From NCBI GenBank assembly GCA_002419005.1, contig DIFF01000012.1, positions 17,436-81,435 on the forward strand: a stretch of 64,000 nt of DNA, given 5' to 3'. The position numbers and the translations under genes are program-made. Source of the stretch: Peptococcaceae bacterium UBA5755 (GTDB taxonomy: Bacteria; Bacillota; Dehalobacteriia; UBA4068; UBA5755). Shown here piece after piece: positions 3,619-48,038 of this stretch. Every line of letters starts with the position of its first letter. Within the stretch, counting starts at the first letter, position 1. The notes beneath the pieces are model-generated. The model was given only the letters and a program-made list of their open reading frames with translations, had not been told where the DNA came from and made no database searches.

Positions 3619-3832
3619 ATGGATGATTCAACTCCTCGTTACGTTATTAGCGCTTACATTATTTCCAGTAATAATATTAATTGATAACTAATATTATCAA
3701 AGTGTAGTTACCCTTTTTGTTATACAAATATTCAAATAAATGGAAACAAAAACTACTTTATAATAGTCTTATTATTTGTAATATGTTAAAATTGGGGTAA
3801 TTAAAAAATAATTAAGATAGGTGGTTATTATT

Positions 3833-17355: not shown

Positions 17356-17438
17356 CTCTTAATTATTTAATTATTATTCACATACCTGTAAAATAATATA
17401 CCAGCAGAAATAAGTCTTGATATTTTTAGGATAATTTG

Positions 17439-17504
17439 TTGATTTTTAAGCCTATCTGTGGTAAAATAGATTATGTCGTTATGCTTTGTAAAGTATAACG
17501 ACAT
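17439..17504 (+). promoter_or_regulatory. modA promoter (TTGATT-17-TGgTAAAAT) with a downstream 10-bp-arm palindromic operator
   Basis: -35 at 17439-17444 and -10 at 17462-17467. Palindrome atgtcgttat-N12-ataacgacat at 17473-17504, with a half-site resembling ModE-type TATAACGA. Confidence 0.45.
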
Positions 17505-17538
17505 AAAGACATAACGAAAAAGGAGATTAAAATCTAAA

Positions 17539-18333
17539 ATGAAGAAAAAATTTTATTTGTTGTTGCTTATTGTTACTATGATATGCCTGGTTTTTGCAGG
17601 CTGCTCTAATTCTACTAATACAGGAAGCACAACTTCTCAAAACGAACCTCCGGTAAATCTATTAGTTTATGCAGGCGCTGGATTGAAAATGCCCTTAGAG
17701 GAAATCAAAACCGCCTTCGAAGCGGAAAACAATGTCATCATAGAATACGTTTACGCTGGTTCCGCCCAACTGTTGTCTCAAATTGAAACATCCGGCAAGG
17801 GAGATGTTTTTATCGTAGGTTCCGAGAATACATACAATAAAGCAATAGAAAAGGATTTAGCCAACGAAAGCAAATTAGTAGCTCATCACACTCCGGCAAT
17901 CATGGTAGCCAAGGGGAACCCCAAAAATATTCAAACCCTGGAAGATCTGACCCAAGAAGGTATTAAAGTTGTCCTGGGCGACCCACAAGCAAATGCCATT
18001 GGTGCCACCGCTCAAAAATTGATCGAAAAAAATAATCTGCAAGATATAAATAACAACGTCGTTGCGCAAACCTCCACCATTAACGAGATTGTTACCGCTA
18101 TCACTGCCGGGAATGCCGATGCAGGAATAGTAACTACAGACTCTGCATACGGCAACAACGCGGTGGAGCTAATTGCCATCCCCGATGCTCAAAATATAGA
18201 TCAGCTGATCCCCATTGGTTCTCTAAAGATTTCTACCAATCCGGAAATAGTGGCTACTTTTGTTGATTTTGTGGCTTCAGAATCAGGTAAAGCTATATTT
18301 GAAAAATACGGGTTTGCTCCTGTAACAGAATAG
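17539..18333 (+). CDS. modA: molybdate/tungstate ABC transporter substrate-binding lipoprotein
   Basis: Lipobox FAGCS. ModA/TupA-type periplasmic binding fold (...VYAGSAQL...). Confidence 0.75.
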   Translation: MKKKFYLLLLIVTMICLVFAGCSNSTNTGSTTSQNEPPVNLLVYAGAGLKMPLEEIKTAFEAENNVIIEYVYAGSAQLLSQIETSGKGDVFIVGSENTYNKAIEKDLANESKLVAHHTPAIMVAKGNPKNIQTLEDLTQEGIKVVLGDPQANAIGATAQKLIEKNNLQDINNNVVAQTSTINEIVTAITAGNADAGIVTTDSAYGNNAVELIAIPDAQNIDQLIPIGSLKISTNPEIVATFVDFVASESGKAIFEKYGFAPVTE

Positions 18334-18351
18334 TGAGATAAAATAACCAAG

Positions 18352-19137
18352 ATGCCAAATAAGCTTTTCGCCGGTTTGTTAAAATCAGTGCTTATTTTTG
18401 CTGCAGTATTTTTGTTAACTCCGCTGGCGGTCCTGATCATCAAAGGCCTAAACTATATCATTCCCAGCCTGATGTCGCCGGAAGTAATTTTTTCCCTCAA
18501 ACTCAGCCTAGAAACATCCACTATTTCCACGGCAATCTGTATGCTAATAGCAATACCAGCCAGTTATGCCTTGTACAAATATACTTCCAGATATAGGCAC
18601 TTAATCGAAAATATTTTATATACCCCAATGTCTCTTCCTCATCTGGTTTCCGGGGTAGCTTTGTTGTTGCTTTTTGGCAGAAACGGCATCGGAGATTTTT
18701 TGTATAATCATTTTCATATCGATTTTGTTTTTACGGCCTATGGGATAACATTGGCCCAACTATTCGTCCATCTTCCCTTTGCCATCAAAATAACCCTGAC
18801 CTCCTTAGAAGAGATCAACCAAAAAATGATCTTTACCGCTAGGACTCTGGGGTGTAATGAATTTCAATCTTTTATCCATATCATTCTGCCTTCTCTTAGA
18901 AGAAGCATTCTCTCAAATATTATCATGACTTGGTCGAGAGCACTGGGTGAGTTTGGCGCGGTAATGATGCTGGCGGGTACTACCAGGATGAAAACCGAGG
19001 TATTACCCACCAGTATCTTTCTTAATATGGCAACCGGAGACCTTGATCTGGCAATCGGAACAGCCGCTATCCTGATCATTTTGTCATTGGCTTGTATGCT
19101 TATATTCAATTCTTTACTTTCCCCAAAAAGAAGGTGA
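18352..19137 (+). CDS. modB: molybdate ABC transporter permease
   Basis: Multi-TM permease with the EAA-like loop (...SRALGEFGAVMMLAG...). Confidence 0.75.
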   Translation: MPNKLFAGLLKSVLIFAAVFLLTPLAVLIIKGLNYIIPSLMSPEVIFSLKLSLETSTISTAICMLIAIPASYALYKYTSRYRHLIENILYTPMSLPHLVSGVALLLLFGRNGIGDFLYNHFHIDFVFTAYGITLAQLFVHLPFAIKITLTSLEEINQKMIFTARTLGCNEFQSFIHIILPSLRRSILSNIIMTWSRALGEFGAVMMLAGTTRMKTEVLPTSIFLNMATGDLDLAIGTAAILIILSLACMLIFNSLLSPKRR

Positions 19138-19141
19138 CTGT

Positions 19142-19837
19142 ATGCTGGATATTACAGATTTTTATGTCAAAGTCGAAGAGTTTTTTCTTAAAGAAATCAA
19201 TCTTAAACTTAATCAAGGAGAATATTTTGTTGTCTGGGGCGAAAGTGGTGCCGGCAAAACGGTATTTTTGGAGAGTATTGTCGGCAGATACAAATTACAA
19301 ACCGGTGCAATCAGCTTGTCGGGCAGACGCATCAGCGATTTACCACCCGAAAAACGTCACATTGGTTTTGTTTATCAAGATTACGAATTGTTTCCGCATC
19401 TTAAAGTCAAAGATAATATCATGTTTCCTCTGCGTCTGCAAAAGGTACCCAAAAAAGATTATCAAAAAAAATGCAATGAAATGATGGAAATATTGAACAT
19501 CAGTCATCTAAAAGGTCGCTATCCCAATGATCTAAGCGGAGGAGAAAAACAAAGAGTAGCCATCGGGCGGGCCTTGATCATGTCTCCCAAGCTTTTACTT
19601 TTAGATGAGCCTTTCAGCTCGCTTGACTATACCAACAAACAGAATATCAAACAGCTATTGAAAGATATTCATCATAAATTTAAGCCGACAGTGATTCATG
19701 TCACGCATGATATTAAAGAAGCCTTTTATTTTGCCGACCGAATTGGTATAATTAGAAATAACACATTGGATAAGATCATTAATAACGGTGAACTGAAAAA
19801 AATGGTAAAAGAGGAGGACTTCTATGAATATATATGA
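19142..19837 (+). CDS. modC: ABC transporter ATP-binding protein (molybdate-type)
   Basis: Walker A GESGAGKT. Signature LSGGEKQRVAIGRAL. Walker B LLLDEPFSSLD. Confidence 0.8.
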   Translation: MLDITDFYVKVEEFFLKEINLKLNQGEYFVVWGESGAGKTVFLESIVGRYKLQTGAISLSGRRISDLPPEKRHIGFVYQDYELFPHLKVKDNIMFPLRLQKVPKKDYQKKCNEMMEILNISHLKGRYPNDLSGGEKQRVAIGRALIMSPKLLLLDEPFSSLDYTNKQNIKQLLKDIHHKFKPTVIHVTHDIKEAFYFADRIGIIRNNTLDKIINNGELKKMVKEEDFYEYI

Positions 19838-20589: not shown

Positions 20590-20666
20590 GGAGGCATAGC
20601 TCAGTTGGTTAGAGTGCCTGCTTCACATGCAGGAGGTCGCTGGTTCGAGCCCAGCTGTCTCCACCA
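20590..20666 (+). tRNA. tRNA-Val (anticodon CAC)
   Basis: Hand-folded cloverleaf: acceptor GGAGGCA/TGTCTCC, D-arm, anticodon loop tTCACAt, T-loop TTCGAGC, encoded CCA. Confidence 0.85.
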
Positions 20667-20674
20667 AATCAATC

Positions 20675-20714
20675 AAATCCGAACCTTGTACCAATCGGTG
20701 AAGGATTCGGATTT
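20675..20714 (+). terminator. hairpin downstream of tRNA-Val (terminator-like)
   Basis: aatccgaacctt...aaggattcggatt, a roughly 12-bp stem with one bulge. Confidence 0.4.
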
Positions 20715-20740
20715 GTGCTTTATCTGAAAGATATATAACA

Positions 20741-20779
20741 AACAATGAGGACGGCACATTTCATGCCGTCCTCATTGTT
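20741..20779. repeat. perfect 16-bp-stem inverted repeat
   Basis: aacaatgaggacggca-cattt ca-tgccgtcctcattgtt. Confidence 0.6.
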
Positions 20780-21039
20780 ATGTCTGTTGAATTTATTTTG
20801 TACCTGTGCTACTTTTATCCTTCTTTGCCATGCCAAGCCTTTCTCCATATTCGGTTGCCAAGGTACAATTTTTTCTGTATCAGCGGGCGTTTTTGCCGCT
20901 GTACCGTTGCTGCGTTCGTTTACGCTCCCGCGCTTCCCTCGATTGCTGAAAGATGTCCAAAAACAACCACTTTTTGTGGTTGGCAGTAAAACTCTATTTT
21001 TTGTTCAAGCTATCGGCTGATAAAAAATACATAGAAACA

Positions 21040-21516
21040 CTAAAAGTTAAATTTATTCTCCCAATTGAAGTTCCCGGATTGTTCTAAACTTGTAGGCCAA
21101 TGATTGCACCATTCCGGCACACCGGGAGTCTCAACTCTGTCAAGGCTCGGTGTATATGGCTTTATATCAAGTATTGGCATACCGTCGTTAGCGTCAATAT
21201 AGTAAATTTGAATAATGCCTTTTTTATAGTCTATATGAACGACCTGCACCGCAGTTAAAGCGATAGGATTTGGGCGAACAGGGGACCTTGTTGCAAAGAT
21301 ACCCATTATAGCCGGAACCTTTTTATACGGTTGCAGTGATTCAAGGGTATTCCTCGCTTCTTTATTATCAAAGTCTCTAAACCACCAAATAACATTAAGG
21401 TGACTAAATCCACCTAATGCTTGCAAAGCTGGAATATACTTCGGTTCAACTTCAATAAACATTCCTTCCTCGTTAACGCTGATTTTACCAATGGGGGTTA
21501 CATAAAAATTTTGCAT
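21040..21516 (-). CDS. TsaA/TrmO-family (YaeB, UPF0066) tRNA methyltransferase-like protein
   Basis: Motif TRSPVRPNPIALT typical of TsaA/TrmO. Start at ATG (MQNF) after GGAGGA. Confidence 0.6.
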   Translation of the reverse strand: MQNFYVTPIGKISVNEEGMFIEVEPKYIPALQALGGFSHLNVIWWFRDFDNKEARNTLESLQPYKKVPAIMGIFATRSPVRPNPIALTAVQVVHIDYKKGIIQIYYIDANDGMPILDIKPYTPSLDRVETPGVPEWCNHWPTSLEQSGNFNWENKFNF

Positions 21517-21543
21517 ATTGCATTCCTCCACATGATTTTTATT

Positions 21544-22446
21544 TTATCTGTAAATCCAGTGTAGACCCTGACACCATGTGAGAGTCAATATCAAAAAAGC
21601 GTTTTGCAAAAAATCTGCAAAACGCTTTTTTGATATTTTTTCCAGTGGGATTTGTATTTCAGTTAAGTATTTATCAGGACTTTCTTCATTCCATGGCCCT
21701 CGGTGAACAATTTGCCTGCTTTGCCCGGTCATTTTATACTGATTGTGTTCCTGCAACCAATTTGCATAAGCAAGATATGCGCCTGCTATGTTCTCAAATT
21801 TCCCATATACCATTGTGCAAGCCATCATCGGTACAGGCTCCGTATTACGATATACAAAGCCATTCATATTTTCACCCATTTTGGCTACGGGCGCACATAT
21901 TTCAATATCAACATCTTTTTCTCTATAATCTGTATCGTGATATATGGTAAAGGTATTGCTTGAAACAGGAATATCATTTTCATCTGCAAAGGCCGACATT
22001 TCTTTCCATAATTGACCTTCGGCATAATAATCAGGAACAGTCCGTCTTAAAGAAAACACTTGATAACTGGGAATAGATTTGATTAAAACGTTATAGTTTA
22101 TCGCTATCTTTTCCTGTCGAATATCCTTTTTTGCCAGTTCGATTTTAGATAGTTTATCTTGTTCGGCCTTAATCGTATTCTCAATTTCCAGGCGTTTATT
22201 TTCAATCTGATTTGTAATAAATTCATCATCCCAATTATTAAGGGAAACTGCAATTTCAGAAACATTAAAGCCTAAATCCCGCAAGAATATAATCTTGTTC
22301 AAAGTGGAAATCTGCTCCGTGGAATACAGTCTATAATTTGTAAATTTATCAATTTCCGCAGGTTTTAACAAGCCTGTTTCATTATAATATCTTAACATTC
22401 GGATTGATACTTGTGTTAATTTGGAAAACTCACCTATTTTGAACAT
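21544..22446 (-). CDS. MerR-family transcriptional regulator with GyrI-like effector-binding domain (BmrR-type)
   Basis: N-terminal MerR HTH (MFKIGEFSKLTQVSIRMLRYYNETGLL), a coiled-coil linker, and a C-terminal GyrI-like region. The ORF reads through a perfect bidirectional terminator hairpin at its 3' end. Confidence 0.7.
   Translation of the reverse strand: MFKIGEFSKLTQVSIRMLRYYNETGLLKPAEIDKFTNYRLYSTEQISTLNKIIFLRDLGFNVSEIAVSLNNWDDEFITNQIENKRLEIENTIKAEQDKLSKIELAKKDIRQEKIAINYNVLIKSIPSYQVFSLRRTVPDYYAEGQLWKEMSAFADENDIPVSSNTFTIYHDTDYREKDVDIEICAPVAKMGENMNGFVYRNTEPVPMMACTMVYGKFENIAGAYLAYANWLQEHNQYKMTGQSRQIVHRGPWNEESPDKYLTEIQIPLEKISKKRFADFLQNAFLILTLTWCQGLHWIYR
21593..21631. terminator. perfect bidirectional terminator hairpin (inside the 3' end of the MerR ORF)
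   Basis: aaaaaagcgttttgca-aaaaatc-tgcaaaacgctttttt. Confidence 0.6.
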
Positions 22447-22469
22447 TCGCACCACCTCTATATTAAAAT

Positions 22470-22498
22470 ATTATATCGTGAGTATTCTGAAACTGCAA
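22470..22498 (-). promoter_or_regulatory. candidate sigma-A promoter of the MerR gene (TTGCAG-17-TATAAT)
   Basis: Minus strand: -35 at 22498-22493 and -10 at 22475-22470. Confidence 0.4.
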
Positions 22499-22596
22499 AT
22501 AAAATACATTACCCATCTATTAGCTGTCTATCTTATTTTCATTCGCATTTGGTAGTTGCTTCCTTATGCACCATTCTCCGATGAATGACTGGCTGA

Positions 22597-23419
22597 AACA
22601 TCGGCACATATATTGATCGCGCATTATTTGCTAAGTTAGACCGCCTCTCCCGTAACCGTTATAATTCCGCTTTAAACAAGGCGGCGCTTCGTAAAAACAG
22701 CGTTAAGGTTGTATCAGCAAAAGAAAACATATCTGATGGGCCGGATGGTATCATTCTTGAATCCATGCTGGAGGGCTACGCTGAATACTATTTCGCGCAA
22801 AACAAGCCCTATACCATGGGCAGCTTTAACGCCCTGCTGAAAAACAGAAAATACATTAGGGAATACAAATATCAGGCTGTGATTATTCCCAACGGCGTAC
22901 CAGCCATCCTGTCCGAAGAACTGTTTTATCGTGTGCAGGAGCACATGGAGAAAAACAAGCGTGCTCCCGCGAGGACAAAGGCTGAGGAAGAATATTTGCT
23001 GACCACCAAGATTTTTTGCGGGAAATGCGGCAGCAGCTTGCCGAAACGGAAAAAGGGCTTGATAATCTGCTCAACGCCATCCAGCAGGGACTTTTGACCT
23101 CATCTACAAAAAAGCGGCTGAACGATTTGGAAGCGCAAAAAGAGGATTTAGAAATCAGCATTCTACAAGCTGAAATGCAAAAACCGAAATATACCAAAGA
23201 GCAGATGGTATTCTGGATAAGTCAATTCAAATACGGCGATATGGACAGTGTGGACTATCAGAAAAAATTATAGATACGTTCGTCAACTCCATCTATCTTT
23301 TTGATGACAAAATCGTGTTTACTTACAACTACAAAGATGGTACGAAAATTATCTCCCTCAAGGATATTGAGGGAGATAATTTGATGAGTGAGTCTTCACC
23401 AAATTGTTCAATACTCTGA
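22597..23419 (+). pseudogene. degraded serine recombinase (N-terminally truncated, at least two frameshifts)
   Basis: Frame opens directly after a stop with ...IDRALFAKLDRLSRN... (the catalytic-domain DRLSR motif), then a zinc-ribbon IFCGKCG and C-terminal coiled-coil. Translation is split over three frames (22597-23097, 23016-23273, about 23270-23419). No start codon or catalytic-Ser region. Confidence 0.6.
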
Positions 23420-23755: not shown

Positions 23756-23787
23756 GAAGATGTTTCATGAAAAGGTGGATCAATCTT

Positions 23788-24720
23788 ATGAATCTTCTGG
23801 AAAAAACAGCTTCAAAAGCAATATCCCACTTATATATTAATGTAAAAAAACATTATAAGATCTATCGTAAAATGTTAAATGCCGTAACCCTATATATTAA
23901 ACCACTTTACAACGCACTGGATCGTAAGATAATGGTTAATGATAGGGAAATTCCGGTACGCGTTTTTCGACCTAAAAAGAATAGCGTTTCAAAAGTCTTG
24001 ATTTTTTTTCATGGTGGAGGCTGGGTTACGGGCAATATCGATTCTTACACAAAAATATGCACTCATATGGCAGAACAAACGAAGCATACTGTTGTGTCGG
24101 TAGATTATCGATTAGCTCCGGAAAATCCCTTTCCGGCGGGTCTTGAAGATTGCTATTATGCAACCAGGGAATTTTTTTTAAATCGAGATCTCTCGAATTG
24201 TAATAGGGAGGATATAACATTAATCGGCGATAGTGCCGGGGCCACTTTAGTTGCGGCGGTTTCGCAGATGGCAAGGGATAATGGTGAATTTCTGCCTTGC
24301 AAGCAGATTCTATTATACCCTGCTACATATGGTGACTATAGTGAAAATTCTCCATTTCCTTCCGTACAAGAAAATGGATATGATTATATTCTTACCTCAA
24401 AACGAATGCGGGAGTACATGGAGCTGTATGTTAGAGACAAAAAGGATAGATATAGTCCTTATGTAGCTCCTATATTGGCACCGGATCTCTCCAACCAGCC
24501 AAAAACATTAATCATCACAGCTGAATATGATTTGCTGCGTGATGAAGGTGAGGCGTATGGAATCAAGCTTAAGGAATTTCATAATGATACCAGGATATAT
24601 CAAATGAAGGATGCCCTCCATGGTTTTCTTACCTTGCCGTGGAAATCGGAAGCTGTGGTAAAATGTTATAAAATAATCAATGATTTTCTAGGGTATAAAG
24701 AGAATTCGGGTGAGTGTTGA
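23788..24720 (+). CDS. alpha/beta-hydrolase fold-3 (HSL-like) esterase/lipase
   Basis: Oxyanion-hole motif FFHGGGW and nucleophile elbow GDSAG. Catalytic D/H candidates in the C-terminal part. AAGGTGG RBS lies 9 nt before the ATG. Confidence 0.75.
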   Translation: MNLLEKTASKAISHLYINVKKHYKIYRKMLNAVTLYIKPLYNALDRKIMVNDREIPVRVFRPKKNSVSKVLIFFHGGGWVTGNIDSYTKICTHMAEQTKHTVVSVDYRLAPENPFPAGLEDCYYATREFFLNRDLSNCNREDITLIGDSAGATLVAAVSQMARDNGEFLPCKQILLYPATYGDYSENSPFPSVQENGYDYILTSKRMREYMELYVRDKKDRYSPYVAPILAPDLSNQPKTLIITAEYDLLRDEGEAYGIKLKEFHNDTRIYQMKDALHGFLTLPWKSEAVVKCYKIINDFLGYKENSGEC

Positions 24721-24722
24721 AT

Positions 24723-26000
24723 ATGAAACACAAAAAGAAAATTGAGTGGAACAGACTTGATAATGCTTCGAAAATTTTTCCGGCAACTTACAGTGAAAAA
24801 GATACCAAGGTATTCCGAATTGCCTGTGAGTTGTATGAAAAAATAGAACCGGAAATTTTACAGGAGGCATTAAGTATAACGATTGAAGATTTTCCCTTCT
24901 ATAAGTCTGTATTACGGAGGGGGATGTTTTGGTATTATTTTGAGTCAAGTGATATTCAGCCGATAGTCCAGGTAGAGTCGAATTCAGTATGTGCTCCTAT
25001 ATATGTAGGACATAGATATAACTTGCTATTTAGGGTATTTTATTATAATAAAAGGATAAATTTTGAAGTATTCCATGCTCTTTCTGACGGTACAGGCGCA
25101 GTTTGGTTCATGCAGTCTCTTGTATATAACTATTTAAATCTGAAGCATAAAGGGACTTTTGCAAATACAGTTCTCCCGAACGATATTTCTTCTATAAATG
25201 GGAAAATGGATGATAGTTTTAAAAAGTATTTTGCCAGCAGCAATATTTTTGTTCGAAGAGTAAAGTACAAGGGAAAACAAAGAAGCCCCAAAGCATATCG
25301 TATTGGTGGAACCAAATTGGAAGAAAACAGAACAAATCTGGTAGAAGGTTCAATGTCTACTAAGGCTATTTTGAATTATGTCAATGAATACAATACGACC
25401 GTGACGATATTTATCGCATCCTTATTAATTTATTCGATCTATAAAGAAATGCCAATCCGTAAAAAAAAATATCCTGTTGTTTTGTCCATTCCAATAAATT
25501 TGCGTCCTTTTTTTAAGTCAGAAACAGGAAGAAACTTCTTTACCACCATGAATGTAGGTTACCCTTTTGATAAAGGTGCACATGATTTGGCAGATGTAAT
25601 TCGCGTGGTAAGTGAGAGCTTTAAAAGAAATTTGACAGAGGAACAGCTGGAAGATCAATTAAATCAATTTATGTTTTGGGAACGAAACCCTTTTACAAGA
25701 GTGAGTCCTTTGCAAATAAAGGATTTTGTCCTTCGTATCATCTCTAAAGTAAATGACAGAAAAATAACTTCAAACATATCCAACCTGGGACAAATCTCCA
25801 TGCCTTTAGAATTTAGTTCATATATTCGGCAGTTCAGCTTCTGTACGGGAGCCAAAAGACCTCAGATAAGTATGTGTTCTTATAATGATGTGATGGTTAT
25901 AAGTTTTACCTCGCCATTTCGAGAGACCAGTATACAAAGAATCTTTTTTCAGATGCTTTCAGAACATGGAATTGAAATTGAGATTTCATCCAATTTATAA
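24723..26000 (+). CDS. condensation / WS-DGAT-like acyltransferase (HxxxDG active-site motif, first His replaced by Phe)
   Basis: FHALSDGTG in the position of HHxxxDG. About 425 aa. Start 2 nt after the esterase stop, indicating an operon. Confidence 0.5.
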   Translation: MKHKKKIEWNRLDNASKIFPATYSEKDTKVFRIACELYEKIEPEILQEALSITIEDFPFYKSVLRRGMFWYYFESSDIQPIVQVESNSVCAPIYVGHRYNLLFRVFYYNKRINFEVFHALSDGTGAVWFMQSLVYNYLNLKHKGTFANTVLPNDISSINGKMDDSFKKYFASSNIFVRRVKYKGKQRSPKAYRIGGTKLEENRTNLVEGSMSTKAILNYVNEYNTTVTIFIASLLIYSIYKEMPIRKKKYPVVLSIPINLRPFFKSETGRNFFTTMNVGYPFDKGAHDLADVIRVVSESFKRNLTEEQLEDQLNQFMFWERNPFTRVSPLQIKDFVLRIISKVNDRKITSNISNLGQISMPLEFSSYIRQFSFCTGAKRPQISMCSYNDVMVISFTSPFRETSIQRIFFQMLSEHGIEIEISSNL

Positions 26001-26017
26001 CGTAGAGGAAGAGACTA

Positions 26018-26686
26018 ATGCAATATTGTAATCGCTGTCATGTTAATATACGGAGTGAAAAAAACAAGTGTGTTTTGTGCGGGGACACCCTATCAATTAT
26101 AGATTCCATCAATAAATATGAAGAAATATTCCCAGAAATACCCCCCATATATAATAGCCATTTGGCAATCCAAATCATGCTTTTTATTTCCTTTGCAGCT
26201 ATGGTGATAAGTTTCGGTATACGTATGATGCTTCCGACAAGCATTAATTGGCCCATTTTTGTCGTATTTGGGGTTCTTAGTATGTGGCTGAGTTTAATTT
26301 TTATTGTGCGAAAAAAGAACAATATACCTAGGACTATAATTTTTCAGGTTACCATTGCATCGTTGCTTGCTGTTTTTTGGGATTGGCAGACAGGTTGGAG
26401 GGGCTGGTCTTTGGATTATCTGATTCCGATTTTATATGTGGCAGCTGTAATAGTAATGTATATAACAGCCAGGATCACGAAGCTCAGTATTAGGGAGTAT
26501 ATTACATATGCCTTTATAGATTGTCTGTTCGGCACCATTCCCGTCTTGTTTATCTTATTTAAATGGGTCAACACCCCTTATCCTTCCATAATATGTGTGG
26601 TCATCAGTATTATCTTTTTATCAGCAATATTCATATTTCAAGGAGAGAATATCAAAATGGAATTAAACAAAAGGATGCATATATAG
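26018..26686 (+). CDS. zinc-ribbon domain protein fused to a roughly 6-TM membrane domain
   Basis: N-terminal CNRCH...CVLCG (CxxC-N13-CxxC) followed by six hydrophobic helices. Confidence 0.55.
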   Translation: MQYCNRCHVNIRSEKNKCVLCGDTLSIIDSINKYEEIFPEIPPIYNSHLAIQIMLFISFAAMVISFGIRMMLPTSINWPIFVVFGVLSMWLSLIFIVRKKNNIPRTIIFQVTIASLLAVFWDWQTGWRGWSLDYLIPILYVAAVIVMYITARITKLSIREYITYAFIDCLFGTIPVLFILFKWVNTPYPSIICVVISIIFLSAIFIFQGENIKMELNKRMHI

Positions 26687-26750
26687 TAATGTTTTTTGTT
26701 GGATATTTGTGATTTGCTCCTATTGATAAAAATAAAGAACGCAGTCTTGA

Positions 26751-26788
26751 AAGCCTTGGAAATGAAGTGTTTCCCAGGCTTTTTTTAT
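26751..26788 (+). terminator. rho-independent terminator of the three-gene operon
   Basis: aagccttgg-loop-ccaggctt followed by TTTTTT. Confidence 0.5.
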
Positions 26789-26900
26789 ATATCAGATTCC
26801 TTCTAGGTTAAACCATTTATAACAAAAAATGAGAATTATAACAAATTAGATTTAATATAATTTTAGTAAAAATTTTTTGTTTTTAGATGGAGCTGAAACT

Positions 26901-28163
26901 ATGATAAAAAAATTATCTATTTTTATAATGAGAAAAAAAACCATTGCTTTCGTGGTAGTTTGCTTTTTAATGTGTATCGGGCTGCTCGCCTTGTTTATGA
27001 ACATATTTTCCAAGAGTGTTATAACTTCACTGCCAAACAACTCAGAATATGTGATTCTGGCGGCAAACGAGCAGGGAATGCATTGTATTCAACACGATTA
27101 TGCCAGTTTTTTGATTCTTCCTCCGGGCAACAACCTGAAGGTTCAGGTATTTTACAATGATGGAAAAACAGCCAAGTTAATTTCTTCTGGCATTAAAGTT
27201 AGTTATCAAATCATAAACAATACTACTTCATCTGATAAAATTAACTTCTGGCAGTACGCCAAAGATTACGGATATGACGTTGCACCCAACATAGGCATCA
27301 CCGGTAACGGCTTGTCGGGTGAAATGAAAATTTCCGATGACGGAAATTATTATGAGGCCACAGCCATACCTGTGACGCCCTATAATGATGAAAGCACAGA
27401 ACTAAATCCCTATCAGCTTGCTTATATTCAAGTTTATGATGCTACCACTGGTGAAATACTTGCTACAATCGACGATGTTGTAGTACCGGTTTCCGATGAA
27501 ATGGACTGCGGAGTATGTCACGGTACAGTCGATACGGATTTAAATATTTTAAAAACCCATGACCAACTGTCAAAAACCAAATTGGCGGAAGAGCTGGCGC
27601 TTGGCAAACGATACAAATGCTCTGATTGCCATCAGGACAATGCTCTTGATATGCCTGGAAACTCTGGTGTTTTACCGATGTCAAAAGCGATGCACGGTTT
27701 TCACGCAGACAAAATGGGGCAAAGCAATATCAAACCCGAATGTTATAGCTGCCATCCCGGTCCGGTAAGCCAATGCTATCGGGGCGCCATGTCAAGCAAG
27801 GTCAGCTGCACTGATTCAGAATGCCATGGCGACATGCAAAACATTGCCCAAACGCAAGCACAGGGCAGGCAGGCATGGCTACAGGAACCAGACTGTGGCG
27901 TTTGTCACGGAGCAAAATATGGGGTCAATCCAGGCCTCCTTTATCAAGATTCCTATCTGATCAATAATGCTAGCTCTGAAATGAATGGCATTATTCAATG
28001 TGAATCCTGTCATAACAGTTCACATGCCGAATGGAAATCAACCAATCCGGCGGATAATCTTCTGCCCATAAGGTTATTAGGATATGCAAGTTTTATCAAC
28101 AAATGTACAGTCTGCCATGAAGGCAAGGGGGTAATACACAGTGAATTAATGGATGAACAATAG
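26901..28163 (+). CDS. membrane-anchored multiheme c-type cytochrome (six CxxCH plus one CX4CH motif)
   Basis: N-terminal TM anchor. Heme-binding motifs CGVCH, CSDCH, CYSCH, CTDSECH (CX4CH), CGVCH, CESCH, CTVCH. Confidence 0.65.
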   Translation: MIKKLSIFIMRKKTIAFVVVCFLMCIGLLALFMNIFSKSVITSLPNNSEYVILAANEQGMHCIQHDYASFLILPPGNNLKVQVFYNDGKTAKLISSGIKVSYQIINNTTSSDKINFWQYAKDYGYDVAPNIGITGNGLSGEMKISDDGNYYEATAIPVTPYNDESTELNPYQLAYIQVYDATTGEILATIDDVVVPVSDEMDCGVCHGTVDTDLNILKTHDQLSKTKLAEELALGKRYKCSDCHQDNALDMPGNSGVLPMSKAMHGFHADKMGQSNIKPECYSCHPGPVSQCYRGAMSSKVSCTDSECHGDMQNIAQTQAQGRQAWLQEPDCGVCHGAKYGVNPGLLYQDSYLINNASSEMNGIIQCESCHNSSHAEWKSTNPADNLLPIRLLGYASFINKCTVCHEGKGVIHSELMDEQ

Positions 28164-28180
28164 AGGGGTGTGGTAACGGA

Positions 28181-29839
28181 ATGGGAAACCAAATTTTGCT
28201 ATTTGCGGCTATTCTTAGTGGTGCTTGTTCCATTTTATCCTTTATGCCCACATCTTTCAAACCAATTAAAAAGACAATACCTATATTGTGGTGCTTATCT
28301 GCTATTATGATCATTTTTGCCGTCGTGCTGATGATTGCTCTCCAAATTTTATGTAAATTTCAATATCAGTATGTTTATGACCATATAAGCAAAGATATGG
28401 GCCTAATTTATAAAGTTTCAGCTCTTTGGTCAGGGCAGGAAGGTTCATTTTTACTATGGGCGCTCATTATGGGCATAATGAGTTTTTTTGTGCTACGAAT
28501 GAAAGGAGACAACACATATAAGGCATTTGGCATTTATTCTGCAATTAGTTCTTGCGTATATATAATGTGCTTTAATGTTCATCCCTTTAATAGAATGAAC
28601 ATTATTCCCCTTGATGGTCTTGGGATAACGGAAGCGCTGAAAAATCCATGGATGGTTATTCATCCGCCCCTGGTATTTATTGCTTACAGTGCAATGGCAG
28701 TCCTGTTCTCCCTTTCTGCAATAATTTCTAAAAAAAATTTTATTGGTTATAACAACCGGATTGCCACATGGCTTCGTATAAGCTGGATATTCCTGGGGTT
28801 AGGAATCCTATCTGGCAGCATTTGGGCCTATCGTGCCTTGGGATGGGGTGGATACTGGGCATGGGATCCAATTGAAAACGCAGCTCTTGTACCATGGCTT
28901 ATAATTTGTGGATTTCTGCACTACCAAGCATGCAGCCAAAACCTAATATGCGTTTTACCGTTTTCCATTTCTTGTTTTGGCGTATTTTTAGCCCGTAGTG
29001 GAATATTAAAAGATCAGTCGGCCCATGCCTATTCAGAAGGGAATGTAATTGTTACGGGGATGGTTATTTGTTTTATGCTTGGAACTTTACTGTTTTATAT
29101 TTTAAAAATTTGTAAACGAAAAAGAAAAGAACATACAGGCAGGCCCTCTTTAAGTAATATGAAAAAATTAATTTTCTATTTTATGAGCGGATATGCCGTG
29201 CTGATTTTCATAGGAACCATAGCTCCAATAATACTGAATATGGAAACACCAATTACATATTATACTGCGATTAGTGCGGTTTTTGCCTTGGCATACAGCA
29301 TCCTACTGCTGTTACGTGATATTGAGTGGTTAAAAAAACGAAGTGTATTAATGGTTTTCATCAGTACAATACTTGTTATCGGTATTATGGCCCTTACCGG
29401 TTCCAATAAATTCATATGGCTTATGCTCATATGGATCTGTTTGATGCCACTTTCCTTATGGTTGGCTTCCGGTTTCCCCAAAAGCTGGAAATTCTACTTA
29501 CCTCATTTGGGAGTTTTACTCCTGATTGTTGGGGCCATCGGTTCGTCGTCACTATGCGGTAAAGCTGTGGCTGTTACAACACTGGATAGCAGTCAAGTCA
29601 TTGTTGCAGGAATCGAGATCCCTTTATCAGAGCTTTCAAAAAAGGATATTTTAATTAAGTCTCTCCCTACGCAGGATTTAATTATCCAATGTTCCCAAAT
29701 TTCCACCTTACCTCAGGGCGGTTTTCTGATACCTTATGAAATAAAACCCTTGATTATTTTGTTTTGGATCGGCGGGATTGCCGTTATTTCCACCTCTTTG
29801 AGTTTCATCATCTGGGATCGGTTTACGATAAGACAATAA
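28181..29839 (+). CDS. CcmF/NrfE-family cytochrome c heme lyase-like polytopic membrane protein
   Basis: SALWSGQEGSFLLW (CcmF N-terminal motif). NPW..IHPPLVFIAYS. WWD domain GWGGYWAWDPIENAALVPWL. About 13 TM helices. No other ccm genes lie adjacent. Confidence 0.7.
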   Translation: MGNQILLFAAILSGACSILSFMPTSFKPIKKTIPILWCLSAIMIIFAVVLMIALQILCKFQYQYVYDHISKDMGLIYKVSALWSGQEGSFLLWALIMGIMSFFVLRMKGDNTYKAFGIYSAISSCVYIMCFNVHPFNRMNIIPLDGLGITEALKNPWMVIHPPLVFIAYSAMAVLFSLSAIISKKNFIGYNNRIATWLRISWIFLGLGILSGSIWAYRALGWGGYWAWDPIENAALVPWLIICGFLHYQACSQNLICVLPFSISCFGVFLARSGILKDQSAHAYSEGNVIVTGMVICFMLGTLLFYILKICKRKRKEHTGRPSLSNMKKLIFYFMSGYAVLIFIGTIAPIILNMETPITYYTAISAVFALAYSILLLLRDIEWLKKRSVLMVFISTILVIGIMALTGSNKFIWLMLIWICLMPLSLWLASGFPKSWKFYLPHLGVLLLIVGAIGSSSLCGKAVAVTTLDSSQVIVAGIEIPLSELSKKDILIKSLPTQDLIIQCSQISTLPQGGFLIPYEIKPLIILFWIGGIAVISTSLSFIIWDRFTIRQ

Positions 29840-29905: not shown

Positions 29906-29934
29906 TTGACAAAGTAGGGGAATGGTGTTAAAAT
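29906..29934 (+). promoter_or_regulatory. sigma-A promoter of the second DEAD-box helicase (TTGACA-17-TGtTAAAAT)
   Basis: -35 at 29906-29911 and extended -10 at 29926-29934. Confidence 0.55.
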
Positions 29935-29971
29935 AAAAAATTGTAACTGCAAAAATAATGGTTAGACATTA

Positions 29972-29998
29972 AACGAGGAGTACATTCCTCGTTTTTTA
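29972..29998 (+). promoter_or_regulatory. leader hairpin plus U-tract (attenuator-like) in the 5' UTR of the CshA-like helicase
   Basis: aacgagga-gtacat-tcctcgtt followed by TTTTTTATTTATT. Lies between the promoter and the RBS. Confidence 0.5.
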
Positions 29999-30020
29999 TT
30001 TATTAGAATTGAGGAAACAA

Positions 30021-44024: not shown

Positions 44025-44228
44025 TTATAAAAATTTGTAAAACCAAAGGTTGAATATATTTATTCCTTTCCAACCAGCAAATTTAAAAGCTAATAAAACA
44101 AGCGCAATGGCAAAAACCAAAAAATAACAAACTATTTCTTTTTTGTTACCCTCTTGTAAAAGACCTGGCAACTGACGTTTTAAAAAAAATGCCAATACTG
44201 GCACAAAAATAAGCCACCCTACAATCAT
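44025..44228 (-). CDS. small 2-TM membrane protein overlapping the gerB-like stop
   Basis: 67 aa with two hydrophobic helices. 4-nt overlap with the upstream gene suggests co-translation with the ger operon. Confidence 0.35.
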   Translation of the reverse strand: MIVGWLIFVPVLAFFLKRQLPGLLQEGNKKEIVCYFLVFAIALVLLAFKFAGWKGINIFNLWFYKFL

Positions 44229-45316
44229 GCCGGTTTCCTCCTTTTACGCAAAACACCTAATATAAGCGTTAAAAGCGGAATTAAAATATAAAAAACCCCA
44301 TCAAAATAAGGCAAAACATATAAAATAGTTTGAAATATTTCCCCAATAAATATAAACAGGTTTTCGCAGAGACAAGTAATTATTATGAAAAGGAGCGGAA
44401 AAACAAAACTGTACTTTGCCAAACCAAAAAGCTGGCCAAAGGCGTAACCTGCCAAAAAAACCAAAATACCAATCCGTAAAAAAGCAATTGAGAGAATGGC
44501 AACAACCCCAAAAACCTCTATGCGAACAAATGAATCATTTATAGTTATCATTTTTAGTGACTCCGTAAGAGGAAAAGTTTCTCGAATTATGCCATCTCCC
44601 AATACAAATGTGTTAATAAGGGTGATAAGAATAAAAGAAAAACCTGCAATTAAAACTCCTTTACAAATAGAAGCCCCTGCTTTTTGAGGTTCAATAAAAT
44701 GAGGCAAAAGCAAAATAAACAATGATATAGCCCCAAAAGGAATAAAGGTTAAGCTGGCTGAAACTTTTGTAAAATCTACCCAATCTGTTCTCGCAACCGG
44801 CAGCAAATTGTTAAAATCCATTTGATTAAACAATAGAAAAAAATAAAATATTATCATTAAAATGAAACCATATACAAGAAATTTAGCAAAACGGCCCAAG
44901 ACTATTAAGCCTTTGCTAGCTATAAAGCAGGAAAAAGCCGCAATTAACGTTATATAAATTATTTTAGGGGTTCTTCTCATATATACACTTATCCAAAAGT
45001 ACTCTAAGCTTTTGGTATCTGTACAAATCAAAAACAACAACAAAAGTATATATAAAATTATTATTATTTTAGCCAAAACCTTGCCATAAGCAAGGGTAAG
45101 AACATCGCCCCAGGTTTTTCCGGCAAAGGCTTTAAACCACATACCACAAATAGCACATAAAATTAAGTTTACCAAAATAGCTATAACTATGCCAAGCCAG
45201 CTATCTCTGCCAAGCACAGATTCGGCCGGGGATATGAGTATTTCACCCCCCAGAATTAGCACGCTTGCCAAAAAAACCAGCATTTTGTTGTTTATTTTAA
45301 ATTCTTTTATATTCAT
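44225..45316 (-). CDS. spore germination protein, GerAB/GerKB family (amino-acid-permease-like)
   Basis: About 10-TM APC-like profile. N-terminus MNIKEFKINNKMLVFLASVLILGGE. Start choice (internal ATG after GGGAGAG) is uncertain. Confidence 0.7.
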   Translation of the reverse strand: MNIKEFKINNKMLVFLASVLILGGEILISPAESVLGRDSWLGIVIAILVNLILCAICGMWFKAFAGKTWGDVLTLAYGKVLAKIIIILYILLLLFLICTDTKSLEYFWISVYMRRTPKIIYITLIAAFSCFIASKGLIVLGRFAKFLVYGFILMIIFYFFLLFNQMDFNNLLPVARTDWVDFTKVSASLTFIPFGAISLFILLLPHFIEPQKAGASICKGVLIAGFSFILITLINTFVLGDGIIRETFPLTESLKMITINDSFVRIEVFGVVAILSIAFLRIGILVFLAGYAFGQLFGLAKYSFVFPLLFIIITCLCENLFIFIGEIFQTILYVLPYFDGVFYILIPLLTLILGVLRKRRKPA

Positions 45317-45390
45317 ATACTCTCCCAAACCTAAGCTTTTTAAATTAATATCCAAAAATTAATATTCAAATGCTGTTTTAAAACTTAGAC

Positions 45391-46530
45391 TTAGTTTTTA
45401 TACTGTATGGGATAGTTTATATCTCCCTGGAAAAGGATTTGAGTTTTCACCTCTATGGATAGGGTTATTTTTTGGATGTTCTCCGGCCAATCTTCTCTTA
45501 ACTTTTGCCATATCTTTGGTTTATAACGATTTATTTGTTGACCAAGATGGAGCACATCTGCTTTTAGCTCTTTTTCTTTTTCCCAGGTTGTTAATATTTC
45601 TGCTTTTATTAATTCAGCAAGCGCTTGATTTAGCCAGTCTATCTGCTCCTTTTGCAGTATATCTTCGTAACCTATTTGTTCTCTTATGGCGCTTTTGACT
45701 TCCAGTTTGATTATTATTTCTACCTTACCATCTTTTTCTTTTACCTGGTATTTTTGCTTTAACCCTAAAAGATTCAGGACGACCAAATTTGTCTCGGTTT
45801 TATCTTTTACCAAAAATACACTGCTTTGTAGCAGGCCGCGGGCCAAAAGCAAGCCTCTTGTTTCTGTAGAATCTAGCTCTCCCACAACCGTGTTATCTTT
45901 AAAAACAGCTAAACCTGCTAATTCCACTTCTTTTTTTTCATTTAATTCAATTATGGGAAGAATTGCAGCTGCTCCTTCAGTCATCATATCGCTAAAAAGA
46001 TCTTTTTGCAGGATGGTATAAGAAAAACCATTGCCCCTTGAGATTTGCCCTTTCATAAGGTTTGCTATTTCTTTGGCCTGACTATTTAAACTATCTTTGT
46101 TTTCTACGTTTAAAATATCCTTTGCCGGACCTTTGCTTATCGTAATATAAACATCCGGACGTATATAATGGCTACGGTTCCAGGAATCTATATATATATT
46201 TGTTGGTTGTTTTGATAACTCTTCCCCTATTATTAAAACCTGGTCATAGGCCCAAGTAAACTGATTGTTAGTCACTTTGCTTAAATTTTGTACTGCTTCT
46301 ATTACTGTTGCGCCTTTTACAGTTATTGTTTTTGTTTCAACGCTATAACCCTGTTCCTGCTTTGAGGGCATTAAAATTTCCACCGTTAATTCTATTTGCC
46401 CATCCTCTGTAAAATCATATGCGGTTCCGATTCCTATGATCATATCACTGATTTCCACACTGTCCCAGCAGCCTACTAAAGCAAACAAAAGCAAAAAAAC
46501 CAAGAGAGCAAAAATTACATGTTTTTTCAT
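45391..46530 (-). CDS. spore germination lipoprotein, GerAC family
   Basis: Lipobox LVGCW. GerAC-like length and composition. Confidence 0.7.
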   Translation of the reverse strand: MKKHVIFALLVFLLLFALVGCWDSVEISDMIIGIGTAYDFTEDGQIELTVEILMPSKQEQGYSVETKTITVKGATVIEAVQNLSKVTNNQFTWAYDQVLIIGEELSKQPTNIYIDSWNRSHYIRPDVYITISKGPAKDILNVENKDSLNSQAKEIANLMKGQISRGNGFSYTILQKDLFSDMMTEGAAAILPIIELNEKKEVELAGLAVFKDNTVVGELDSTETRGLLLARGLLQSSVFLVKDKTETNLVVLNLLGLKQKYQVKEKDGKVEIIIKLEVKSAIREQIGYEDILQKEQIDWLNQALAELIKAEILTTWEKEKELKADVLHLGQQINRYKPKIWQKLREDWPENIQKITLSIEVKTQILFQGDINYPIQYKN

Positions 46531-48038
46531 GTTTTTGCCTCCTTGGCGGGTTTTTGGTTTTTGGCCTGTCTGTGTTTGCTGCCGGATGTTGCCAAATAAG
46601 TTGGTCTTTTATCCAGCATCCAAAGAGGAAAACGCACAATTGTATCACGCAAGCTGTAGGTCGGTAAAATGGGGGCCAGATACGGCACGCCAAATGATTT
46701 TAAGGATAAAAGGTGTCCGAAAAAAAACATGCTACCAATGAGTATGCCAAAACCTCCTAAAACACCAGCTAAAATAAGAAAAATTATGCGATACATGGTA
46801 CCAGAATCGGTTAAAGGATTTGTTACGAAAGAAGCAATAGCGGTGCCGGCCACCACTATTACTACGGGAGCACTAATGATGCCGGCCGCAACTGCCGTTT
46901 GGCCGATTACCAAAGCACCCACAATGCTAACAGCCTCACCAGCCGGGCGGGGTAAACGAACACCGGCCTCCCGCAATATTTCATAAATTATGCCCAGAAT
47001 GAAAATCCCTAATACTGCATTGAAAGGGGTGTTTATGTCTGCCGTGGAAATCGTTAAAGACAGTTCATATGGCAAAAGCTCCTGGTGAAAACAGATAATT
47101 GCCACATAAATACCCGGACCCCAAACACTTACAAACAAAGATATATATCTTATTAATCTTACAAAGGCAGCATAATAAGGCCTTGAATAGTAATCTTCAG
47201 AACTTTGCATGGTCTCCACAAACAAAAGCGGCACTGTAAGCACAATGGGACTGCCATCCACCATAATGGCCACCCTGCCCTCCAGCATTTTTGCCGCAAC
47301 CTTGTCCGGTTTTTCGCTGTTGCCAACTGTAGCAAAAACAGAATAAGGATTGTCTTCTATCAGCTGTTCTATATACCCCGACTCAAAAATGCCATCTATA
47401 TCTATTTTTTCTATTCTTTTTTTTACTTCTTTTACCACATTTGGGTCCGCCAAGCTTCTTAAATACACTACAGCCACATTTGTTTGAGTGTATCGGCCAA
47501 CTACAAATCTTTCCAGCGTAAAATCTGGGTGTTTTAGTTTACGGCGCAGCAGCGCAATGTTGGTTTGCAAATTTTCTACAAAGCCTTCTCGCGGACCACG
47601 CACCACCACCTCTGTGCTGGGCTCGGTTATGCTCCTTTTTTCCCATCCTCTGGTTTCTATCAAAAGGGCTTCTGCGTTTCCTTCCAAAAGCAACACGGTA
47701 AACCCGTTAATAAGCCTGTTAATAATAACTTTTAGTTCCGCTGCTTCTTCTATTTCTACGGTTGAAATAAAAGATTTGCTTATATTTTCTAGGGTTATCT
47801 TTTCCTCATCTACAGCAATATTTTGCAGCGGTTTTAAAATAAAATCGCTGATAGTTCTTTTATCTATAAGTCCATCCAAATACAAAAAACAAGCTGTCTG
47901 GCCATATTTGCCACCTATAATAATTTCCCTTTGTATCATTTCGTTGTTTTTACCCATTATTGCATTAATTTTGGCCAGGTTTTCGGCCAAATCTTCTGTT
48001 AAGGTGCCTGTTATATCCAAACTGTGTGTGTTACCCAT
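46527..48038 (-). CDS. spore germination protein, GerAA family
   Basis: Soluble N-domain plus C-terminal multi-TM domain typical of the GerAA/GerKA A subunit. Overlaps the C-subunit start. Confidence 0.75.
   Translation of the reverse strand: MGNTHSLDITGTLTEDLAENLAKINAIMGKNNEMIQREIIIGGKYGQTACFLYLDGLIDKRTISDFILKPLQNIAVDEEKITLENISKSFISTVEIEEAAELKVIINRLINGFTVLLLEGNAEALLIETRGWEKRSITEPSTEVVVRGPREGFVENLQTNIALLRRKLKHPDFTLERFVVGRYTQTNVAVVYLRSLADPNVVKEVKKRIEKIDIDGIFESGYIEQLIEDNPYSVFATVGNSEKPDKVAAKMLEGRVAIMVDGSPIVLTVPLLFVETMQSSEDYYSRPYYAAFVRLIRYISLFVSVWGPGIYVAIICFHQELLPYELSLTISTADINTPFNAVLGIFILGIIYEILREAGVRLPRPAGEAVSIVGALVIGQTAVAAGIISAPVVIVVAGTAIASFVTNPLTDSGTMYRIIFLILAGVLGGFGILIGSMFFFGHLLSLKSFGVPYLAPILPTYSLRDTIVRFPLWMLDKRPTYLATSGSKHRQAKNQKPAKEAKT

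Follow-up and report, generated by a model that had tools for sequence, protein, structure and literature searches.

Maturation of c-type cytochromes is thought to need either the multi-protein Ccm apparatus (System I), in which CcmF is strictly dependent on CcmE, or ResBC/CcsBA (System II). Several described systems pair a divergent lyase gene with a neighbouring multiheme cytochrome that carries an odd heme motif, including NrfEFG, which serves the CXXCK site of NrfA, and NrfI and CcsA1 of Wolinella, which serve CXXCK and CX15CH sites, respectively (PMC3601427). The closest published parallel to the locus described here is CcmF2 of anaerobic methanotrophic archaea (ANME), which lies beside the cytochrome MHC-B in genomes that keep CcmABCE and a general CcmF1 (PMC9012536). 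Here we analyze a 64-kb stretch of DNA from Peptococcaceae bacterium UBA5755 (contig DIFF01000012.1; the whole stretch is referred to as the window) in which, likewise, a gene for a predicted heptaheme c-type cytochrome with one CX4CH site is followed by a gene for a predicted, divergent CcmF-type holocytochrome c synthase (heme lyase).

Strict pairing of the cytochrome with a CcmF-like protein

Homologues of the cytochrome number 606 in the protein collection searched, and a scan using one genome per species placed relatives in at least 534 genomes, from which 80 loci (28 Firmicute and 52 other) were fetched with flanks of up to 10 kb on each side. A CcmF-like gene lies immediately downstream of the cytochrome in 28/28 of the Firmicute loci and is absent from the flanks of the 52/52 non-Firmicute loci. 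Taking instead seven lyase homologues (33-99% identity) as starting points, a cytochrome of ~415-432 amino acids was found directly upstream in 7/7 cases. The other neighbours of the pair are unrelated from genome to genome; all-against-all clustering of flanking proteins revealed no third gene conserved with it, and no second multiheme open reading frame (ORF) was present among 403 flanking genes. Gene order across these loci indicates that the pair is a strictly conserved, co-inherited two-gene cassette in Clostridia, in keeping with the self-contained module proposed in an earlier model-made reading of the same DNA (the sequence-only reading).

Genes that recur near the pair were considered as additional components and rejected. 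A NapH-like polyferredoxin with a thioredoxin-like gene (L010, L013 and L014), thioredoxin-reductase-like genes (L021 and L022), and Zn/Mn-type ATP-binding cassette (ABC) transporters (L019, L020 and L093) are each found near the pair in three genomes at most, while the DUF6320 gene that precedes the pair in the window recurs only in L008, ~2 kb away and on the opposite strand. In the window, an imperfect hairpin with a T-run follows the DUF6320 gene (~26752-26786, identified by eye) and a second hairpin follows the lyase gene (Table 1), so that the pair looks like a bicistronic operon of its own, with the second hairpin as its probable terminator. Since a promoter-like site precedes this second hairpin, which itself lies closely ahead of the start codon of the DEAD-box/DbpA helicase gene, the hairpin could instead form the 5' leader, with a regulatory role, of that gene.

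The lyase gene begins 17 nt past the stop codon of the cytochrome gene, on the same strand. Its assignment to the CcmF/NrfE family in the sequence-only reading, which also noted the WWD domain and the N-terminal WSGQEGSFLLW motif, is supported by a match to PF01578 (96.3 bits against a cut-off of 29.9; residues 83-270). Scores against full-length family models fall below their cut-offs, with 161.2 bits for the CcmF/NrfE model TIGR00353 (curated cut-off 569; E about 1e-47 to 5e-47) and 162.6 bits for the NrfE model TIGR03145 (cut-off 927), and PF16327, detected in five lyase homologues, was undetected in the window lyase. Identity is 26% to Escherichia coli CcmF, and 31% to NrfE over half the length. 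The best sequence match in the PDB is Thermus thermophilus CcmF (6ZMQ; E=4.5e-36), and an AF2 model of the lyase with a predicted local distance difference test (pLDDT) score of 86.6 matched the same structure over its full length in Foldseek (E=1.7e-13; template-modelling (TM) scores 0.71/0.67 over 618 columns), as compared with a partial match to CcsBA (7S9Y; TM score 0.39). Strands at residues 460-523 of the model precede the last helix and correspond to the C-terminal periplasmic beta domain of the CcmF fold. Furthermore, H161, H247, H282 and H442 align to P-His1, TM-His1, P-His2 and TM-His2 of E. coli CcmF, respectively; the aligned columns are those of residues that we take to be numbered H173, H261, H303 and H491 in the E. 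coli protein. The WWD motif and all four of these heme-ligand histidines are invariant in 45 members of the lyase family.

A search of 1.84 billion representative proteins recovered ~23 clusters (at 50% identity) of lyase relatives, ~550 amino acids in length and scoring 277-628 bits, followed after a gap in score by canonical CcmFs of 650-850 amino acids at 202 bits or below. The two nearest canonical CcmFs directly follow ccmE, in ccmABCDEF or ccmE-F-H-A-B-C operons. These results indicate that the lyase is a distinct CcmF subfamily of ~550 residues existing only as the partner of this cytochrome, and place it outside the ordinary CcmF clades, as the sequence-only reading had implied. The invariant WWD motif and histidine pairs, together with the purifying selection acting on all heme ligands in the cytochrome, fit a working heme-handling enzyme. 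One lyase, from an isolate of Lachnotalea glycerini (P0096), comprises 514 amino acids with a lysine at the H282/P-His2 position and an altered WWD motif (GSGEYWSWHPIENA), and may be decaying or functionally altered.

Table 1. Coordinates of the cytochrome-lyase pair and of nearby features, numbered from the first position of the window.
Feature	Position	Strand	Details and basis
Heptaheme c-type cytochrome ORF	26901-28163	+	420 aa; ATG start
Shine-Dalgarno sequence GGAG	26889-26892	+	8 nt 5' of the cytochrome ATG; direct sequence reading
N-terminal membrane anchor of cytochrome	26934-27017	+	aa 12-39; helix in AF2 model
Beta-sandwich domain of cytochrome	27048-27488	+	aa 50-196; AF2 strands, moderate confidence
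M60-H61-C62 in beta-sandwich domain	27078-27086	+	G59 83/83, M60 81/83, H61 79/83, C62 80/83
Heme domain of cytochrome	27498-28139	+	aa 200-413; motifs; C-terminal half modelled with low confidence
C292, proposed disulfide partner of C62	27774-27776	+	conservation pattern
Fourth heme site CTDSECH (CX4CH)	27807-27827	+	aa 303-309; sequence motif
Divergent CcmF-type holocytochrome c synthase (heme lyase), predicted	28181-29839	+	552 aa; polytopic membrane protein
WSGQEGSFLLW motif	28427-28459	+	lyase aa 83-93; sequence
Lyase H161	28661-28663	+	alignment to E. coli CcmF
WWD domain GWGGYWAWDPIENA	28841-28882	+	lyase aa 221-234; sequence
Lyase H247	28919-28921	+	alignment to E. coli CcmF
Lyase H282	29024-29026	+	alignment to E. 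coli CcmF
Lyase H442	29504-29506	+	alignment to E. coli CcmF
Promoter-like site TTGACA, 17 nt, TAAAAT, with upstream TG	29906-29934		strong; just upstream of the hairpin
Hairpin (10 pairs) followed by T-run	29971-30004	+	130 nt past the lyase stop; pattern scan and sequence
Strain-specific segment with ABC transporter	17410-19693		SBP_bac_11 binding protein, permease, ATPase; absent from sister-strain contig L001
tRNA-Val	20590-20666
Strain-specific insert (2.7 kb)	20669-23402		directly 3' of tRNA-Val; absent from L001
91-aa ORF			within the insert
TrmO-like gene	21040-21531	-	within the insert
MerR/GyrI-like regulator	21544-22455	-	within the insert
Two out-of-frame recombinase fragments	22765-23273		within the insert

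The seven heme sites and the wider cytochrome family

The upstream gene of the pair is as the sequence-only reading described it, encoding a membrane-anchored protein with six CXXCH motifs (CGVCH 203, CSDCH 240, CYSCH 281, CGVCH 332, CESCH 367 and CTVCH 402) in addition to CTDSECH. Its Shine-Dalgarno sequence lies in the AT-rich intergenic region (26687-26900; 214 nt) that separates it from the DUF6320 gene, and homologues begin with M-I/K-K-K at the same start position; a TTG at 26877 was rejected as an unlikely alternative to the ATG with its GGAG. Taken together, these features indicate a multiheme c-type cytochrome, exported and anchored, with seven conserved predicted heme sites.

Matches to Pfam were confined to the generic multiheme families Cytochrome_C7 and c3_2, with the NCBIfam CxxxxCH/CxxCH domain model TIGR01904 scoring 24.8 bits over residues 298-339 (cut-off 27) and TIGR03507 scoring 17 bits (cut-off 209). 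PF22113, which represents MtrC/MtrF domain II/IV, did not match the window cytochrome at E<=0.01; it matched 7/27 close relatives, as well as three distant relatives at 41-52 bits (cut-off 30), and PF09698 matched 1/27 family members. A sequence profile search of the PDB gave chance-level matches only, with no solved structure, and a fold search with the AF2 model returned generic immunoglobulin (Ig)-like sandwiches, none significant, this being a weak test given a mean pLDDT of 65. The PF22113 matches in family members and distant relatives suggest a distant, weak relationship to MtrC/MtrF heme domains, and make plausible the link to extracellular electron-transfer cytochromes raised in the sequence-only reading.

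Across 83 aligned cytochrome sequences the seven heme motifs are invariant, C303, C308 and H309 of the fourth site included (83/83), and the order of spacings between heme cysteines (2,2,2,4,2,2,2) is retained in 116/120 of the best homologues. This conservation indicates that the CX4CH site is real and under selection, not a chance match. None of the heme cysteines or histidines is lost among sequences of 50-70% identity from dozens of genomes, which argues that the holo-protein is made in these hosts. At the fourth site the cysteines are separated by four residues in Firmicute and Actinomycetota-type loci and by two in the outgroups, the exception being the Firmicute locus L008 (CX3CH). From this distribution, CX4CH is placed as a lineage trait that originated where the Gram-positive members of the cytochrome family branch off.

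The sequence-only reading had proposed that the lyase is specific for the CX4CH heme. On this explanation a ResBC/System II apparatus encoded elsewhere would mature the six CXXCH sites and leave the CcmF-like protein dedicated to CX4CH, much as NrfE serves CXXCK and CcsA1 serves CX15CH. The lyase gene does adjoin a cytochrome with a single, well conserved non-standard site; lyases for odd motifs are known (PMC3601427), and the same idea has been raised by the ANME authors for CcmF2 and expanded motifs (PMC9012536). However, the five Actinomycetota-type CX4CH orthologues (L028-L032) have no lyase in their flanks (of full 10-kb length in both directions for L030 and L032 alone), whereas L008, with its CX3CH variant, does have an adjoining lyase gene, though one shortened by a contig artefact. 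Outgroup cytochromes with CXXCH at the fourth site likewise have no lyase in their flanks. The presence of the lyase is thereby indicated to follow host phylum and not the CX4CH motif, and the spacing of this site appears not to be the reason for the lyase, so that this part of the sequence-only reading is not sustained. In addition, the Geobacter-type CxxxxCH/CxxCH domain is a named family in both NCBIfam and Pfam, such that the motif is not unique to the cassette, and we know of no dedicated lyase for that domain. A System I-type lyase in a System II background would also be an unprecedented mix, and neither resB nor resC is present in the window. We therefore regard a lyase dedicated to the CX4CH site as improbable. 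The L008 contig is itself palindromic: it holds a second, inverted copy of the cytochrome and its surroundings, its lyase breaks off after 144 amino acids, and it is probably an assembly artefact.

Residues outside the heme motifs are also conserved. H220, H265, H268, H375, H413 and R294 are invariant in the 83 aligned cytochromes, and M297 is retained in 81/83. H61, from the beta-sandwich domain, is a likely candidate for a distal heme ligand. With seven hemes and only six extra histidines available, one heme is probably His/Met-ligated or open-coordinated, and the protein may have a catalytic role at a heme without a distal histidine. Phenylalanine replaces C62 in three Firmicute sequences and replaces C292 in three, the loci noted for this pattern being L017, L019 and L020; provided, as we assume, that the same three carry both replacements, C62 and C292 probably form an inter-domain disulfide. 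The H61 position is occupied by tyrosine in three sequences and lysine in one, residues 59-62 of L019 reading G-M-Y-F, which suggests that the histidine ligand has been given up by one sublineage.

Three groups of relatives were distinguished. Clostridia-type cytochromes (51-71% identity to the query) possess seven hemes, an N-terminal anchor and CX4CH at the fourth site (once CX3CH); they derive from metagenome-assembled genomes (MAGs) apparently of anaerobic reactors and the human gut, judging by isolate names, and from other metagenome contigs. Actinomycetota/Thermoleophilia-type cytochromes, at the five loci L028-L032, share 50-52% identity, CX4CH and seven hemes. The remaining relatives, from Nitrospirota, Campylobacterota, Hydrogenophilales/Thiobacillus, Acidobacteriota, Planctomycetota and Verrucomicrobiota, share 30-44% identity, usually carry nine hemes with CXXCH at the fourth site, and have extra Ig-like or lipoprotein N-termini and often an adjoining two-component regulator; comparison of their flanking genes revealed no conserved redox partner. 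Together, these groups indicate that the cytochrome is one of a large family, as yet without a name, of stand-alone multiheme cytochromes, surface-located or periplasmic, that spans phyla.

Several observations were made on individual members of this family. The Gram-negative relatives (L037-L085; e.g. L043 9323-11545 and L064 9422-11593) are nine-heme proteins of 550-1100 amino acids that appear to form an uncharacterised family. The Solibacter relative has an added lineage-specific C-terminal domain, and in several Betaproteobacteria, Sulfuricurvum and a Nitrospirota MAG the cytochrome relative adjoins a response regulator and a histidine kinase. In L030, a Thermoleophilia MAG, genes resembling the small and large subunits of a [NiFe]-hydrogenase (4153-7013) lie ~3 kb upstream of the CX4CH orthologue, the small subunit having a twin-arginine-like RRDFLK signal; the hydrogenase identity was read by eye from N-terminal sequence only, and could hint at a hydrogen-linked electron route. 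Two taxonomic labels probably reflect binning errors, namely L011 (Burkholderiales), which has a typical clostridial pair, and L028 (Planctomycetaceae), which has an actinobacterial-type cytochrome.

Heme supply to the cytochrome

With phmmer queries comprising three sets of Ccm proteins, one from E. coli and two from the operons of the nearest canonical CcmFs, no CcmB, CcmC, CcmD, CcmE or CcmH was found in the window or in the 28 related loci with their flanks of up to 10 kb, matches being limited to the lyase itself and generic ABC ATPases. Similarly, no ResB, CcsA, CcdA or heme-synthesis genes were found in the window from Pfam searches of its ORFs and from the annotation of a sister-strain contig (L001; ~98.5% DNA identity), which was used both for gene annotation and for comparison of inserts. 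NrfF- or NrfG-like genes were likewise absent in the Pfam searches of the window and the Ccm phmmer searches. The statement in the sequence-only reading that no other biogenesis genes lie nearby thus extends across all 64 kb.

General systems for cytochrome c biogenesis are present in Actinomycetota and in the Gram-negative hosts, but are as a rule lacking from fermentative Clostridia of these families. The lyase may therefore be encoded beside its substrate because the clostridial hosts are otherwise without cytochrome c biogenesis, and, if no other part of System I is present, the enzyme would have to obtain heme without CcmE. Our best explanation, which we hold with no more confidence that it is right than that it is wrong, is of a two-gene cassette that supplies its own synthase, for maturation of all seven hemes in hosts otherwise lacking cytochrome c biogenesis. 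In such a cassette the cytochrome would be exported by Sec and held by its N-terminal helix at the outer face of the cytoplasmic membrane. The lyase would present an external WWD heme site flanked by two histidines, along with a transmembrane bis-His heme site, and would link heme covalently to each of the seven sites, CX4CH included, in the adjoining cytochrome. Working without CcmE, CcmABC and CcmH, it might take heme straight from the membrane or from its own transmembrane site, as CcsBA does, and the mature cytochrome, on the membrane's outer face, could then donate electrons to an extracellular partner or accept them from it. The more specific proposal, that the 550-residue clostridial protein is a one-protein synthase derived from System I that needs no CcmABCD, CcmE or CcmH, takes up heme as CcsBA does and travels with a single substrate, is offered tentatively, at somewhat less than an even chance.

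Several points weigh against a self-sufficient cassette. No CcmF is known to function in the absence of holo-CcmE. Genes for CcmABC/CcmE or ResBC may lie beyond the window and the flanks searched, and the cassette on its own does not account for how heme crosses the membrane or how the apoprotein thiols are reduced. The Actinomycetota sample is also small, at five loci (one labelled Planctomycetaceae), where a lyase could be encoded more than 10 kb away. A precedent in favour of the cassette is given by streamlined Ccm systems, which in archaea and System I* bacteria function without CcmH and CcmD (PMC9084895, PMC3601427), but these still require CcmABC and CcmE (PMC9084895). In Methanosarcina, ccmABC, ccmE and ccmF each have a locus of their own, and neither CcmE nor CcmABC is dispensable (PMC9084895), and some Firmicutes have System I* (PMC3601427).

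The last two cases also serve as precedents for an alternative in which the lyase is the CcmF of an ordinary, dispersed System I or I*, with CcmABC(D) and CcmE encoded elsewhere and ccmF kept beside the only or main cytochrome c. The CcmF fold with all four histidines present is as expected of such an enzyme, and CcmF2 of ANME adjoins its cytochrome with CcmABCE elsewhere (PMC9012536). Conversely, no ccmE, ccmC or ccmB was found in the flanks examined from 28 diverse genomes, whereas the nearest canonical CcmFs lie directly behind ccmE; the neighbours differ with each genome, as expected of a self-sufficient moving unit, and the family is a separate, shortened clade. We consider a dispersed System I unlikely, but a serious competitor nonetheless.

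Finally, flank clustering revealed no quinol dehydrogenase or other electron partner conserved beside the cytochrome. This counts against the self-sufficient cassette as well, and would favour a second or different role for the lyase, in which its transmembrane b-heme forms a cytochrome b-like membrane conduit that feeds electrons to the cytochrome as part of a respiratory or electron-export complex. The transmembrane histidine pair H247/H442, whose counterparts are heme b ligands in CcmF, is invariant, as a conduit would require. However, the WWD motif and both periplasmic histidines, needed only for heme handling, are equally invariant, and orthologous cytochromes of other phyla function without this CcmF-like protein; we consider such a conduit very improbable.

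Surroundings of the pair and comparison with known systems

The window also holds a GerA/GerAC/spore-permease operon (44225-48038), purine and thiamine operons and a thiamine pyrophosphate (TPP) riboswitch. This gene content indicates a spore-forming Firmicute as the source, consistent with the Gram-positive background assumed in the sequence-only reading, which had further placed the pair within an accessory stretch after tRNA-Val and considered horizontal acquisition plausible. A 2.7-kb strain-specific insert does lie directly behind the tRNA gene and resembles what is left of an integrative element after decay (Table 1). The pair, however, is located 3.5 kb beyond the end of this insert, and L001, which lacks the insert, retains the pair; shared by the two strains, and outside the insert, are the cytochrome-lyase pair along with the genes for the hydrolase, the acyltransferase-like protein and DUF6320. 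At 0.38-0.41, the GC content of the pair shows no anomaly against ~0.34-0.46 for the window. A horizontal-transfer island at this locus was therefore rejected, whereas mobility of the cassette over longer times is supported by its variable neighbours.

Other features of the window lie apart from the pair. The second strain-specific segment encodes an ABC transporter located between a xanthine-dehydrogenase-family molybdoenzyme operon and a DUF364 gene, a position from which it is possibly concerned with molybdate or tungstate uptake. Upstream of the pair, a three-gene unit (23767-26686) comprises an Abhydrolase_3 alpha/beta hydrolase, a 428-residue protein with no Pfam match and an HALSDG motif (HxxxD acyltransferase-like), and the DUF6320 protein, which has an N-terminal CxxC...CxxC ribbon. 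A 1684-residue bacterial alpha-2-macroglobulin-like protein with MG2, A2M, bait-region and bMG10 domains is encoded at 3821-8875; such proteins are, to our knowledge, uncommon outside Gram-negative bacteria.

A CcmF-type enzyme found always and only with one cytochrome, in hosts not known for c-type cytochromes, would represent either a minimal route of maturation not described before or a dispersed System I that has gone unrecognised in Clostridia. If the lyase is a stand-alone synthase, no smaller System I derivative would be known, the enzyme would offer a ready-made means of producing multiheme cytochromes in Gram-positive hosts, and the cassette would give a surface multiheme cytochrome to fermentative Firmicutes otherwise free of cytochrome c. 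The CcmE-independent reading rests on absence of evidence within limited flanks. Surface multiheme cytochromes of this family could matter for extracellular or interspecies electron transfer in reactors and the gut.

When set beside described cytochromes, the window protein resembles the decaheme cytochromes MtrC, MtrF and OmcA in the arrangement of a beta-sandwich followed by a multiheme domain. It differs from them in having seven hemes instead of ten in a single beta-plus-heme unit, in scoring below the PF22113 and TIGR03507 cut-offs, in its transmembrane-helix anchor and Gram-positive host, and in lacking an MtrAB-type porin partner. The Geobacter CxxxxCH...CxxCH domain (TIGR01904/PF09698) shares with it the succession of a CX4CH by a CXXCH motif, although the window protein scores just short of the TIGR01904 cut-off.

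Among heme lyases, canonical CcmF/NrfE proteins, represented by E. coli CcmF and 6ZMQ, share with the window lyase the fold, the WWD domain, the W-x-x-x-EGS-x-LLW motif and the four histidines. At 552 amino acids, as compared with ~650-850, the window lyase has a shortened C-terminal periplasmic domain and, unlike canonical CcmF, lyases of this type were never found to adjoin ccmE, ccmH or ccmABC at the loci examined, and always adjoin one particular cytochrome. CcsBA of System II (7S9Y) belongs to the same heme-handling superfamily and, as a single membrane protein, combines delivery of heme to an external WWD site with its ligation. By passing heme from a transmembrane bis-His site to the WWD domain, CcsBA provides the closest functional model for a CcmE-independent enzyme. 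Unlike CcsBA, the window lyase has no CcsB/ResB domain and no CcsBA sequence match at E<0.01 in the PDB, and the NCBIfam CcsB model TIGR03144 reached 43.8 bits against 187.6, over the WWD stretch only. No publication on the clostridial cytochrome-lyase pair was found in the literature. NrfE, NrfI, CcsA1 and CcmF2 are paralogues that each serve an odd site or protein alongside a general lyase, whereas no general lyase accompanies the pair within the window or the flanks; by comparison with these systems, what would be new here is the obligate two-gene arrangement, for which CcmF-family enzymes offer no precedent, as well as a widespread new family of cytochromes.

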